A stretch of DNA of 64,000 bases from Raillietiella orientalis (Eukaryota), in the NCBI GenBank assembly GCA_036172245.1, contig JAYWIR010000018.1, positions 1,240,001 through 1,304,000 on the forward strand. Direction: 5' to 3'. Both the position numbers and the translations under genes were made by a program. Below are positions 43,640 to 49,920 of this stretch, one piece after another. Within the stretch, counting starts at the first letter, position 1, and every line of letters begins with the position of its first letter. Below the pieces are notes generated by a model that saw nothing but the letters and a program-made list of their open reading frames with translations, did no database searches and was not told where the DNA came from.

Positions 43640-43645
43640 TTTATT
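43640..43645 (-). terminator. Putative poly(A) signal (AATAAA) of ethanolamine kinase
   Basis: First minus-strand AATAAA, about 100 nt after the stop at 43743. Confidence 0.55.
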
Positions 43646-43742
43646 TACCGAAGACCAATAATAAAAAATAGCCCAAATGAAATACACCGATCACTTCGAA
43701 TGATATGAGTTACCACTTGGTGAGCCAAGTTTCCCGTATAGA

Positions 43743-45002
43743 TTAAGGTTTCAGGAAAACTTTCCACTTTTCGTACTCGGCAAATCTGATGAGAGCATAA
43801 CTGTTTGGAAATAAAATTATGCGATCTGATGCGTGATACAAACTTTGTGAAGTCAAAAGTTATTTTGGATTCGATTGATTGGAATACTGCCCATAAAGCC
43901 CAAAGAAAATGTGCTGCAGCTGTGAACTTTCGCACCTCATGTAACAGAAGCTGAACGTCTTGTTCATGAAATATGTGATCACAGTACTCGAAAAGGTATT
44001 TCGTTATCCAATCTTTTTGAAAATCTAAGCTTGGATATAAGGAGTAATCCAGATAGTTATCACTAACACCTAAATAAGCAGGAAAAATAATCAAATCAAA
44101 TACACTATCATTGTGACAGTCACCTGGATATTCGCAAAAATGGTTCGCTATGTCGTATGCCTGATAGTTCCATCCCATATACTCAAGATCAATGAAAACT
44201 AATGATTGTTTTTCCTTATTGTAAATGATATTAGCGAGTAGCAAGTCATTATGGCACAATACTATTGGACTAGAACTGTTACGCAGGTGTTCAAACAGAA
44301 ATTGGTGCTCTCGTTGCAGCTTTTTTACCGTGAACACTTCAGGAGGAACACCACTTAAAGAGCAATTATCTTACAAGAATTCCATTTCATAAACACTTAC
44401 GCTATCTGATCTTCTGAATGTGCTGATATAAAATCCATTAGGATATTCAGCGTACGCCATATGCACGGAATTTTTTCATCTCTACTTTCTATGCGATGCA
44501 AACGAGCTAAACAAGCAGTAAGCAAATCGACAACTTCAGGATTACGACATGTGGAAGTTGTTAACGTAGCGCCATGAAAATACTTATAGATAAATCCATT
44601 TCGGAAGTGTGCATACAGCAGAGGTGCCAGCTTCTCTTTCTGCAACCTCTGCATCGGAGGTCTGAGAGTCAAAGATGATGTAACAATGTACCTGGATCCA
44701 ATATATCTCTTCATTGCGATTGATTAATATTTCCGTATTTGCGCCATATACTTTCACTAAAACTATATCCAGCGGATCGCTTGGCTGAAAAAATCCCACC
44801 AATCTATTTGTAATACCATCTGTGAACACCTGCATTGATTATGGTGAATAGTTTTTTTATTCATGCTAAGCTCTAAACCAACCTTATTATAAATAACATT
44901 CCCCCAATCCTTCCTCAGAATACGCACTAGGCTCTTGCCATCTTTAACTAGTTGGTCTCCCACTTCGATATCTAGATACACATAAGATCCATCTTGACTC
45001 AT
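43743..45002 (-). CDS. ETNK1: Ethanolamine kinase (easily shocked/ETNK-like, about 339 aa)
   Basis: Exons 44883-45002, 44692-44829, 44401-44648, 44124-44353, 43844-44069, 43743-43800 (introns 53, 43, 47, 54, 43 nt; 1020 nt). Motifs FTDGITNRL, VKVYGANTE, Brenner motif CHNDLLLANII, FIDLEYMGWNYQAYDIANHFCEY, HFLWALWA, FDFTNYALIRF. Confidence 0.95.
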
Positions 45003-45028
45003 GCCCTTATGATAACACTATTTTACAA

Positions 45029-45061
45029 CTGGAAACAAATATTTGTTATATACTTTTTATT
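45029..45061 (-). promoter_or_regulatory. POLR3C poly(A) signal (45056-45061) directly followed by a 3' splice acceptor (AG at 45029-45030) 26 nt upstream of the ETNK ATG
   Basis: Minus strand reads AATAAAaagtatataacaaatatttgtttccAG. Confidence 0.6.
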
Positions 45062-45143
45062 TCCCTGTTTTAGCTGAAGGGCCCCAACCCCGCCCCCCAG
45101 TGTGAGGCTCAGCCATGCAGCAGCCTCTCCAAACAAAGTATCA

Positions 45144-46881: not shown

Positions 46882-46889
46882 GACCAGTT

Positions 46890-46993
46890 CTGCAAAAATG
46901 AAGGCGGAATTGCATTTCAATTACAGTGGTTTGATTCGCCTCAGGGGCTCCCACTGAAGGTCCATAGCATTCTCGGTAAAGATAGGGTTTATT
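46890..46993 (-). promoter_or_regulatory. trc poly(A) signal (46988-46993) and a 3' splice acceptor (AG at 46890-46891) 8 nt upstream of the POLR3C ATG
   Basis: Minus strand reads gcagAATAAAccc ... ccttcatttttgcAG aactggtc ATG; about 97 nt from signal to acceptor. Confidence 0.6.
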
Positions 46994-47041
46994 CTGCATA
47001 AGCATGTATCTGCATACAATAGCTAGAGTCATATATTCTGA

Positions 47042-49616
47042 TCACAGATTTGGAACACGGGGCAAACAACCTCTCTGCGTTAACCCTTCGAATCGACGGA
47101 AAGTATAATTGATAAACACCCAGTCCTGGAAGCCCGGAGTACCCTCTTTGCAAGGTGCACAAGCTAGAGAAGCCAATTAGTCAGTGAATTCAGGTTCAGA
47201 GAGACTCACGAATTTTAAGGTCAACATCAGGAAATTCATCAAAATTAGATGTATCATCGATGGAACGCACATCCACAGGAATAGCTGCAGGTCGTTCCCG
47301 GATATGCTCCCAATCAACACCACGAAAAAATGGATGTTGTTTCAACTCATCAAGTCCTGCACGACCACCAATGCGATGCTCAGCATCACAGCAGAACTGC
47401 AACACAGCATCACATGCTTCCTCGGAAATAGGTATCTCTGGAGGAAAATTTAGTGTATCCCTCCAAGTCATAACCTTACGATACGTTTCTTGAGGATTTT
47501 CACTGCAAAATGGTGGATAACCTGAATTTTTTGGAATAGTATGTTAATAAATGAGTACGGAACTTACCAATTAACATTTCATACATTATGACCCCCAAAC
47601 TCCACCAATCACAACTGGTGCCATAGCCTGTTTGCAAGAAAACTTCAGGAGCAATATAATCTGGAGTGCCAACTGTGCTATAGGCCAAAGCTCTTCGGTT
47701 CCGTTTCCAGGATTCTGCTCTTCTCTTACTATCCATTGGACTGGAAGCTGTTCTTGGATACTAGTCTGTTTGATGTTTATCCTCACTCACTAAAATCTGA
47801 TGGTTGGACTTGACTGAGGTTGCGATAAAATTCTGTACAGTGGGATTTCTTCAAGCCTGTGCACAATCCGAAATCAGACAACTTGATGTGTCCACGAGCA
47901 TCCAGAAGTAAATTATCAGGCTTGATGTCACGATGAATAAATCCCAAGCGATGAATTGAATGAATGGCTAGAGCAGTTTCAGCAATATAGAACTGAGTGC
48001 ACTCTTCTGACAGAGTGTCCTTTTTCATTAGCAATGTCATCATATCTCCTGAAAATTTCATATCTTAATGGAAAAAAACTTTCAGCTACAAGTGTACCTC
48101 CAGGGAGAAATTCCATAATCAGGTAAAGATTGATGGGGTCCTGAAAACTGTAAAACATTTTGACAACCCATTGGTGATCAGCTTCTACAAGCACATCCCT
48201 CTCAGCTCGAACATGAGCCACTTGTTCTTTTTCTAGCATATCTAATTTACGCAATATCTTCATAGCATAAACATGCCCTGTATCCTTTTTTTGCACAAGG
48301 CGTACCTAAGACAAGGATGCATACTTCATGCAGAGGATTAGCTCCCTTACCTCACCAAAAGCACCTTTTCCAATCACCTTGAGAGGTTCAAAATCTTCCA
48401 CTCCAAGACGTGATCTTTTTAATCTTAGAAATTCAGTCTCTTTCATAGCATGCTGTAACCTTTTTTCCTGTTTTTGTGTTTCTGTCAATCCTTCTTGTCT
48501 CATGCATTCTTCCAGCTGGAGATACCTAACAAATTAACCTTCAGAGCATTTCGAGAATTCCTGCTTGAAAATCATTTCTAACAAAAGTTGTCCAGTTTTA
48601 ATTCAACATTTTAACTGTTTGCATGTGACATTATTCAAGGTTTTTGACCTCTTTATGATAATATGTGACTTACTTTATTTGGGGGCCTTACGAATGACCT
48701 TTGATTATGGATGACATGTACAAGTGAAACTAAAAAAGGAAGCAAAAAAACGATACGACCTACATTACTTCAACGTTTTCTTCATTAATTGGAAACTGAT
48801 CAAAGAGCTTCAAAAGACAGATTGCTGGATCATCTACATGAAATATAAAGGCCTCACATGGAAAAGATGTGATGAATTGAAGACGGAAAAAAAATCATGC
48901 AAAATCAAAATGACATACACCGATGCTTACTTCAATGTATGCTACTTTACATTACATGTAAAATCACTCAACTGAATTTGAACAAGATCTAAAGAATTCA
49001 AGCTAAATTGGGTAATGAGTATGTGAACCAAATTTCATCCAACTATCGTTAACCGCATCCACTTTACACCAGCTCAATATTCACATTGCTTAGCTTTTTT
49101 TCACAATGAACATAAAGCATGCATAAATGCCACATAGGGTACATGACTTACATTCATAACTATATTCGTAAGGGTCCTTTACCAATTACTGTAATAGAAT
49201 CAATTAAGAAAATAATTCTGCTCTGACTTTTCCCATTTATAACAAATAATGAATGGAATGAAAACTCAATCGTGGCTACTGTCATCAATGGGCAAAGCAT
49301 GAATTCTTCTTACATGATTTACATATTTTTGAGGAAAGAAACAGCATTATCATTCTAGAATATAACGTTCGTGTTTCTAATTATGGAATCCGAAACAACT
49401 GAGAACTTTTTCCCATCTTGAAAACCTTACAACAATCACTCCTGCAGAACTTATGGAAATAACTTAATGGTACATGTTCAAATAACTATACCTTTGTTTT
49501 CTTTCCAAGTGCTGGGCAATTAAATTACTATAGTAGTTCTCTAGTGATACTTTGGCTTTCGTTGCTTTGTCTAATGTATGATCACTGAAACTAATAGTGT
49601 TTTCAAATGTAGCCAT
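47042..49616 (-). CDS. trc: NDR-family serine/threonine kinase tricornered (STK38/STK38L), about 459 aa
   Basis: Exons 49492-49616, 48351-48525, 48098-48305, 47791-48048, 47568-47747, 47210-47521, 47042-47163 (introns 966, 45, 49, 43, 46, 46 nt; 1380 nt). Motifs [60 protein letters not shown] and hydrophobic motif [16 protein letters not shown]. Confidence 0.97.
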
Positions 49617-49649
49617 GCTTGATACTATTTCACATTTTTCCTCCTACAC

Positions 49650-49920
49650 TTCACCGTACCAGATCTGGTTTCTGGATCGTTTCCCTTACTTCCCTTCAAA
49701 AGTAAGTTCTTTCTTTCATCAAGCGTGTCTGCATGCTTCAAAAATGCAGGGAACCTGCTGGTGACCGAAACTTTTTGTTTCTGTTAACGCGAAAAAACTG
49801 CCATTAATTCGGGCTCCAGGACAAACTATGTACATCCCAACTCGACTGCAACGCTGCAACTTCGTTCCTCACGCGAACTCGTGTGGCCTGTGTACACGAA
49901 TCATTGCTGTGTACATCATC
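49650..49920 (-). promoter_or_regulatory. Candidate promoter/5' region of trc, and of the putative trc-POLR3C-ETNK unit
   Basis: A local CpG-containing patch immediately upstream of the trc ATG, in otherwise CpG-poor AT-rich DNA. Position-based inference only. Confidence 0.4.

Follow-up and report, generated by a model that had tools for sequence, protein, structure and literature searches.

A tight head-to-tail cluster of trc, POLR3C and ethanolamine kinase genes in a pancrustacean has an operon-like layout that ordinary cis-splicing may explain

Within the window, the whole 64-kb stretch of DNA that was analysed, three genes lie head to tail on the minus strand, in the order of the kinase gene trc (49616-47042), the RNA polymerase III subunit gene POLR3C/RPC82 (46881-45144) and an ethanolamine kinase gene (ETNK, 45002-43743), and the gaps from stop codon to the following ATG are 160 nt for trc/POLR3C and 141 nt for POLR3C/ETNK. 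The models were built by coordinates with GT-AG introns and give open frames of 459, 507 and 339 aa, respectively, and all ten exon translations tested (10/10) matched the expected Pfam families. Elsewhere in the window, neighbouring genes on one strand are separated by approximately 0.5 and 4 kb, by which measure the spacing of the trio is unusually tight. The operon-like arrangement is confirmed: the earlier note had described three unrelated housekeeping genes on one strand, with an AATAAA and a pyrimidine-rich acceptor in each of two very short spacers, and the gene models, the Pfam matches, both spacer lengths and the signals themselves agree with that description. The window contains no tRNAs and no tandem repeats. 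A bacterial or chimeric origin of the half of the window with 60% GC was ruled out, as no long ORFs and no Pfam matches were found in it.

The first gene consists of seven coding exons ending in a TGA stop at 47044-47042, with a first intron of 966 nt and remaining introns of 43-50 nt. Its exon 4 matches Pfam Pkinase with E = 1e-18, while Pkinase_C reaches 20.7 bits, just below the cut-off of 20.9. Identity to tricornered-named proteins is 79% for exon 6, and over its full length the protein shows 82-85% identity to arthropod trc or named tricornered proteins. By its kinase domain, its AGC C-terminal extension and this high degree of identity, the predicted product is an NDR/tricornered (STK38-like) kinase.

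The second gene has six exons and introns of 34-49 nt, and all four families HTH_9, RNA_pol_Rpc82, POLR3C_WHD and RPC3_helical were matched over three of its exons (POLR3C_WHD with E = 5.5e-24). The best matches are named RPC3, with 56-57% identity for exon 5 and 37-42% over the full length, and as the N-terminus also agrees with the family consensus, the predicted protein is POLR3C/RPC82. The third gene likewise has six exons, with introns of 43-54 nt, and Choline_kinase (PF01633) was found on all four exons tested (4/4; best E = 1.1e-24). Its best matches are named ethanolamine kinase (51-66% identity), and the named proteins among 24 matches are all ethanolamine kinases, kinase-like domain proteins or hypothetical proteins. 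By its domain and nearest named relatives, the gene product is a predicted ethanolamine kinase.

The first spacer, from the trc stop to the POLR3C ATG (46882-47041, 160 nt), contains three CpG and seven ATG triplets, and the second, from the POLR3C stop to the ETNK ATG (45003-45143, 141 nt), a single CpG and a single ATG. Each holds one AATAAA on the minus strand, at 46988-46993 and 45056-45061, the probable poly(A) signals of trc and POLR3C, where 0.14 would be expected per 150 nt. Note that an AATAAA in the spacers is required under every model. With the ETNK signal at 43645-43640, the distance from stop to AATAAA in the three genes is 49-98 nt, indicative of short 3' UTRs, so that 141-160 nt offers room for a 3' end and a short leader. 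Directly 3' of the AATAAA in the second spacer lies TATATAA (45052-45046). Both spacers further contain the motif CCTTCAG, which on the minus strand between 30 and 64 kb occurs only in these two copies. The first is Inr-like (TCAGT), located at 46954-46960 and ending 73 nt 5' of the POLR3C ATG, while the second, at 45074-45080, ends 72 nt 5' of the ETNK ATG. Shuffling produced an equally long match at the same offset 160 times in 5000, and random genomic pairs gave one 249 times in 5000, corresponding to p of about 0.03-0.05. Predicted RNA structure in the spacers is unremarkable (z = +0.53 and -1.16).

The acceptors end 8 nt before the ATG of POLR3C and 26 nt before that of ETNK. In the latter case the intervening stretch is closed by stop codons in all three frames and can therefore only be 5'-UTR. 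Scored with weight matrices derived from the 18 introns of the window, a small sample, the acceptors reach 6.9 in the first and 5.1 in the second spacer, 14th and 11th of 18 against the leave-one-out scores of the true sites, and thus score as genuine splice acceptors in this genome do. An equally good AG at most 30 nt upstream was found for 4.3% and 11.4%, respectively, of 483 ATGs in presumed non-coding DNA, for a joint probability of approximately 0.005 that has to be read as post hoc, as all splice-signal tests were chosen after viewing the sequence. Plausible donors are present as well. In the first spacer the G at 46954 scores 5.3 and lies 65 nt upstream of the acceptor, defining a candidate cis intron at 46890-46954 (GT 46954-46953, AG 46891-46890), and in the second the G at 45088 scores 7.2 at a distance of 60 nt, defining a candidate at 45029-45088 (GT 45088-45087, AG 45030-45029) that encloses the POLR3C AATAAA. 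The last G of the first CCTTCAG is the candidate donor of the former. True donors have leave-one-out scores of 1.5-9.6, and a donor as good at 34-72 nt upstream was seen for 10.6% and 4.0% of 1224 background AGs (joint probability about 0.004). The 16 short introns of the window measure 34-57 nt, and both candidates are longer. The earlier note had called these acceptors orphans; they are indeed good acceptors, but with plausible cis donors 65 and 60 nt away they may not be orphans and are not demonstrably those of outrons. A comparable feature precedes trc, where a very strong GT donor (49688-49689, minus strand, score 9.1) lies 73 nt 5' of the ATG and is followed by weak acceptors only, with scores of 1.6 and -1.1.

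Upstream of trc, at 49701-49900 on the minus strand, lies a patch with 12 CpG (o/e 1.13) that is likely a promoter region and is the only such patch between 43.6 and 50 kb. The claim that a promoter-like patch stands before the first gene only holds in so far as the patch is present and the spacers are CpG-poor, but the patch is merely moderate, 23rd by CpG of the 280 windows of 200 nt between 32 and 60 kb (median 5 CpG). High CpG content marks the other likely promoters of the window, with 24 CpG at 38301-38500 and 16 at 41801-42000.

A single-gene tree of trc nests the protein inside Pancrustacea but outside the hexapod and ostracod rows, and on this evidence places the organism among the non-hexapod pancrustaceans. 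The named RPC3 matches of POLR3C are all arthropods, and a protein atlas narrowed the taxon no further than Arthropoda/Chordata. No close relative is contained in the protein libraries, as the POLR3C exon does not exceed 57% identity among the matches listed. One match is a 984-aa 'unnamed protein product' of the ostracod Darwinula stevensoni (P0057), a gene model that fuses trc and POLR3C, with 83.5% identity to the window in its trc part and 37% in its POLR3C part. As in the window, trc is here followed by POLR3C on the same strand and close enough for a merged gene model, but P0057 is a predicted fusion protein with no ETNK attached. The adjacency of trc and POLR3C is thus probably old, and their linkage seems to have been kept between the lineage of the window and the ostracod. 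Among the matches listed, such a fusion is found in one of 120 trc relatives, and two further ostracod trc proteins are unfused. The search for POLR3C homologues gave 657 matches, the best 150 of which were inspected. Two among the matches listed exceed 600 aa; P0200 joins POLR3C to an unrelated CaMK-like kinase and P0272 carries no second family. No fusion of POLR3C with ETNK occurs among the matches listed of the POLR3C and ETNK searches. In metagenome DNA, trc or ETNK was found near none of 16 RPC3 loci (tblastn, E <= 1e-4); one of these is termite-like and spans 18 kb, of which 7 kb lie upstream and 5 kb downstream.

The operons of C. elegans, Ciona and Oikopleura consist of same-strand, unrelated housekeeping genes separated by at most about 100-200 nt. 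Their spacers hold a poly(A) signal and then an acceptor near the next ATG, and only the first gene is preceded by a promoter-like patch. The cluster resembles these spliced-leader (SL) operons in strand, spacers, signals and its single promoter-like patch; it differs in that its acceptors have candidate cis donors and its lineage is arthropod. Among the crustaceans, SL trans-splicing has been described for copepods (PMC4664967) and amphipods (Douris et al. 2009, cited in PMC5111886), systems that the cluster resembles in its crustacean origin and in the short 5' UTRs behind its acceptors. As of 2021, operons and polycistronic mRNAs were stated to be unreported in SL-using crustaceans (PMC7986045), and our literature search for operons in SL-using arthropods retrieved no report. 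Drosophila, which has no SL trans-splicing, has many polycistronic loci in the account given in PMC4528330: the 'rule-benders' of FlyBase comprise 159 dicistronic pairs as well as seven tricistronic and two tetracistronic sets, 130 genes have a common promoter and 5' non-coding exons, and 2.5% of genes share transcripts, with alternative monocistronic transcripts being common at such loci. Tight head-to-tail packing of unrelated genes in an arthropod, with no SL required, is what the window shares with them, whereas its spacers each have an AATAAA of their own and its upstream ORFs are long.

We favour, with a probability of about 0.5, a tight cluster in a compact pancrustacean genome in which the three housekeeping genes are each expressed on their own and processed by ordinary cis-splicing, with no spliced leader. 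Ordinary splicing combined with overlapping genes appears to fit the sequence at least as well as SL trans-splicing. From the gene identities, spacer sizes, signals and scores given above we infer which sites would be used and where transcripts would start. Each upstream gene would use its poly(A) signal inside the spacer, and the downstream mRNA would begin within the spacer or slightly 5' of it and overlap the 3' UTR of that upstream gene. This mRNA could carry a 5'-UTR intron of 60-65 nt that ends at the supposedly orphan acceptor, or it could start at the Inr-like CCTTCAG 72-73 nt 5' of the ATG and leave the acceptor unused; ordinary initiation, cleavage/polyadenylation and cis-splicing would handle each gene. 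In line with such separate units, both acceptors have a donor at an intron-like distance, an arrangement with the joint chance of about 0.004 given above, and the donor before trc raises the possibility that genes here commonly carry a short 5'-UTR intron, which would then not be peculiar to downstream cistrons. The shared offset of CCTTCAG, the TATATAA of the second spacer, the room left by short 3' UTRs and the arthropod nature of the organism, with many tight, overlapping and polycistronic loci in SL-free Drosophila as described in PMC4528330, point the same way. On the other hand, the candidate introns exceed all 16 short introns, the matrices come from 18 sites and the tests were picked after looking, and a first exon 5' of the donor at 46954 would bear up to six ATGs, which would burden a leader heavily. 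CpG is scarce in the spacers (3 and 1, against 24, 16 and 12 in the likely promoters), the trio is unusually tight compared with its neighbours, and the seemingly conserved adjacency of trc and POLR3C is also consistent with co-transcription.

Such co-transcription might proceed from a shared promoter upstream of trc, as in Drosophila, yielding di- or tricistronic mRNAs cis-spliced in their spacers or a trc leader exon joined alternatively to the downstream genes, a possibility that we consider unlikely. In its shared-leader form, cis-splicing would join the non-coding trc leader (donor 49689) to the two spacer acceptors (46890 and 45029). A shared promoter would suit the strong leader donor with weak local acceptors and the strong acceptors before the next two genes, as well as the sole CpG patch upstream of trc, the FlyBase precedents counted in PMC4528330 and the fused Darwinula model. 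The polycistronic form, however, needs an IRES or similar for internal translation past ORFs of 459 and 507 codons, RNA structure in the spacers is not unusual, and the AATAAA in each of them argues that the upstream mRNAs end there. Cleavage at these same signals is part of a true operon, in which one precursor from the trc promoter would receive a capped SL at 46890 and 45029. The layout, with three genes on the same strand, very short spacers and a poly(A) signal followed by an acceptor, is that of nematode and tunicate operons, both spacers are poor in CpG, and splicing at these sites would produce leaders without upstream ATGs in spite of the seven ATGs 5' of the acceptor in the first spacer. 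SL trans-splicing in copepods and amphipods, as reported in PMC4664967 and PMC5111886, the position of trc in its tree and the apparently conserved linkage to POLR3C would also agree. Nevertheless, both acceptors have plausible cis donors, the Rfam search of the whole 64-kb window gave no match and thus no SL RNA family, a result of little weight, and the Parhyale SL core motif is at chance level, with one match at up to one mismatch (itself with one mismatch, on the opposite strand within a trc intron) against 1.14 expected. In addition, no operon was on record for any SL-using arthropod according to the statement in PMC7986045, and similar clusters exist in arthropods without SL, as treated in PMC4528330. 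The cis donors, the like feature of trc and these SL-free loci make the sequence lean mildly against trans-splicing, and a genuine crustacean operon resolved by poly(A) cleavage and SL addition, with its trc-POLR3C pair conserved to ostracods, is in our estimate improbable. Least credible, and very improbable indeed, is a conjoined gene, in which read-through from trc and splicing of GT 47070, immediately ahead of the trc stop codon, to acceptor 46890 would create a trc-POLR3C fusion protein. Joining 47071 to 46889 would preserve the frame of the POLR3C ATG, and the Darwinula fusion leaves trc at the residue homologous to GT 47070. An in-frame junction has a chance of one in three, however, the donor is weak (score 3.2, with 17% of background GTs as good), and the single fused protein among the trc relatives listed, next to two unfused ostracod ones, is perhaps an artefact of gene prediction.

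If resolved by a spliced leader, the cluster would represent the first operon system in an arthropod, and operons would have arisen independently in animals one more time. In the likelier case of separately expressed, cis-spliced genes it would represent extreme local packing, with a poly(A) signal, a leader intron and the next start in about 150 nt, and an apparent linkage of trc and POLR3C across two deeply diverged crustacean lineages that may be useful for understanding why some neighbour pairs resist rearrangement. Annotators should also be wary of such tight pairs, which can end up as a single fused gene model, as with Darwinula.

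Gene models built from coordinates place three complete genes within 43.6-49.7 kb of the minus strand, all with GT-AG introns: the NDR/tricornered kinase gene trc (ATG 49616, stop 47044-47042; 7 exons, 459 aa), POLR3C, also known as RPC82 or RPC3 (ATG 46881, stop 45146-45144; 6 exons, 507 aa), and the ethanolamine kinase gene ETNK (ATG 45002, stop 43745-43743; 6 exons, 339 aa). All 10 exon translations submitted from the trio matched their expected Pfam families, with identities of 79% for trc exon 6 to relatives named 'tricornered', 56-57% for POLR3C exon 5 to relatives named RPC3, and 51-66% for ETNK to named ethanolamine kinases. 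Only 160 nt (47041-46882, spacer 1) and 141 nt (45143-45003, spacer 2) separate the genes, bearing out the arrangement from which the earlier note had proposed an operon resolved by spliced-leader (SL) trans-splicing. Each spacer holds a single AATAAA (46993-46988 and 45061-45056), and a third copy follows ETNK at 43645-43640. As the other same-strand gaps are ~4 kb, from ETNK to an ING gene, and ~0.5 kb, from ING to the ATG that follows at 38027, the trio is unusually tight for the window. Its layout is probably functional rather than due to chance.

The pyrimidine-rich AGs said to precede the downstream ATGs are indeed found at 46891-46890, 8 nt before that of POLR3C, and at 45030-45029, 26 nt before that of ETNK. 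On a log-odds matrix built from 18 acceptors of trc, POLR3C, ETNK and the ING gene at 38.5-39.7 kb, with true sites scored leave-one-out, they reach 6.9 and 5.1 and rank 14th and 11th of 18 against true sites. Scores as high were seen in 2.5% and 7.0% of 1224 background AGs, and among 483 ATGs from DNA presumed to be non-coding, 4.3% and 11.4% had an equally good AG at most 30 nt upstream; the joint chance estimate is ~0.005, with a small matrix and a test picked post hoc. Out of the window's seven gene starts, those of POLR3C, ETNK and ING have a score of at least 5.1. Both spacer acceptors are probably real, and the one before ETNK is confined to the 5' UTR because all three frames are closed between it and the ATG.

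While these acceptors score like true sites, their description as orphans is open to doubt, as a donor matrix built on those 18 introns revealed minus-strand candidates 65 nt upstream for POLR3C (GT at 46954, score 5.3) and 60 nt upstream for ETNK (GT at 45088, score 7.2). Donors as good occur 34-72 nt upstream of 10.6% and 4.0% of the 1224 background AGs, respectively, with a joint chance estimate of ~0.004. The 60-nt candidate intron before ETNK spans the AATAAA of POLR3C. At trc, a donor of score 9.1 lies 73 nt before the ATG, followed by weak acceptors only.

The CpG patch described solely upstream of the first gene stands out locally, the spacers being CpG-poor (3 and 1 CpG), but its strength is moderate, with 12 CpG in 49701-49900 (23rd of 280 windows); it is surpassed by 38301-38500, which separates ING from the ORF that follows and has 24 CpG, and by 41801-42000 with 16. 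The motif CCTTCAG has only two minus-strand copies in 30-64 kb, ending 73 nt before the ATG of POLR3C and 72 nt before that of ETNK; 5000 shuffles gave a same-offset match of equal length 160 times, and 5000 random genomic pairs did so 249 times. Read as TCAGT, the copy in spacer 1 resembles the arthropod initiator, and in spacer 2 the AATAAA is followed by TATATAA. RNA structure in spacers 1 and 2 was not unusual (z = +0.53 and -1.16).

No close relative emerged by POLR3C, the best identities among the matches listed being 37-42% over the full length and 56% for exon 5, even when 1.84 billion representatives were searched exhaustively; named matches were arthropods throughout, led by termites and a locust. 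A FastTree phylogeny of trc (62 rows picked from 120 listed matches, copepods, malacostracans and branchiopods not among them; rooted on molluscs and a brachiopod, support values not considered) placed the window within Pancrustacea and separate from both the hexapod-plus-collembolan rows and three ostracods. One of the 120 listed relatives, a 984-aa model from the ostracod Darwinula stevensoni, combines the kinase with all RPC82 domains, trc being followed by a 28-residue linker and the start of POLR3C, and same-strand adjacency of the two genes thus appears to extend to an ostracod. It is not universal, as neither trc nor ETNK lies beside POLR3C in any of 16 metagenome loci, an 18-kb termite-like locus included. 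A transcriptome-derived protein of the tadpole shrimp Triops cancriformis (P0013, 1296 aa) carries alpha-mannosidase domains joined to POLR3C (residues 5-515), so that in this species POLR3C is merged with a downstream neighbour, a different one from that in the window.

We give a probability of roughly 0.5 to separate, overlapping transcription units with ordinary cis-splicing, to which the two candidate donors point. Against it, introns of 60 and 65 nt would exceed every short intron seen (16 of the 18 reference introns span 34-57 nt, median 45.5), and up to six ATG triplets would fall in a leader exon lying upstream of 46954. A Drosophila-type locus, with a shared promoter or read-through, is a distinctly weaker candidate; for the fly, FlyBase as quoted in PMC4528330 counts 159 dicistronic pairs along with 7 tricistronic and 2 tetracistronic sets, or 2.5% of genes.

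An SL-resolved operon, as originally proposed, we regard as unlikely, more so than the Drosophila-type locus, because of the candidate cis donors at both acceptors and the arthropod precedent for such clusters. It stays in play through the low CpG content of the spacers, the clean leaders that the acceptors would leave and the apparently conserved trc-POLR3C linkage. The pertinent sections of the respective sources describe SL trans-splicing among calanoid copepods (PMC4664967) and amphipods (PMC5111886), and those of PMC7986045 state that operons are not reported from SL-using crustaceans; the literature searched yielded no later report. A fusion gene joining trc to POLR3C is very improbable. 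Splicing from the GT at 47070 (minus strand, just before the trc stop) to 46890 would be in frame with POLR3C, and this GT marks the residue where the Darwinula model departs from trc, but the donor is weak and an in-frame junction has a 1-in-3 chance. The remaining odds are assigned to none of these readings.

Neighbouring genes were sought by Pfam on the open frames of the window, with matches in 5 of 110 frames of at least 75 aa and in none of 148 shorter ones. The ING gene (39695-38521, minus; ATG 39695) has two introns, 57 and 279 nt long. Upstream of its ATG, the region's strongest acceptor (score 9.5) lies at 39966, and another of score 6.9 just 6 nt before the ATG; the site at 39966, together with a CpG-rich patch at 41801-42100, suggests that the 5' UTR contains an intron of roughly 1.9 kb. 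The strongest CpG island of 32-60 kb (24 CpG per 200 nt, 58% G+C) falls within 38027-38520, past the poly(A) signal of ING and ahead of a minus-strand ORF that starts at 38027 and has no Pfam family. Vma22/CCDC115 (54507 to 55082, plus, one open frame) forms a convergent pair with an MRG/MSL3-like gene (minus strand, ATG 56581, ending near 55436), their coding ends being only ~350 nt apart, and 3' UTRs are therefore short here. Near 30-31 kb a GC-rich block without recognisable genes (1-30000; about 60% G+C, CpG o/e 1.0) adjoins the gene-dense, AT-richer one (32-60 kb; about 40%, 0.76); the first 30 kb gave no Pfam match in 132 open frames of at least 125 aa, no tandem repeats and no tRNAs. 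At 30960-31800 an inverted pair of copies, a few hundred bases each, stands face to face; one arm translates, by eye, to a mariner-type transposase C-terminus, and the whole looks like a broken transposon in hairpin arrangement.
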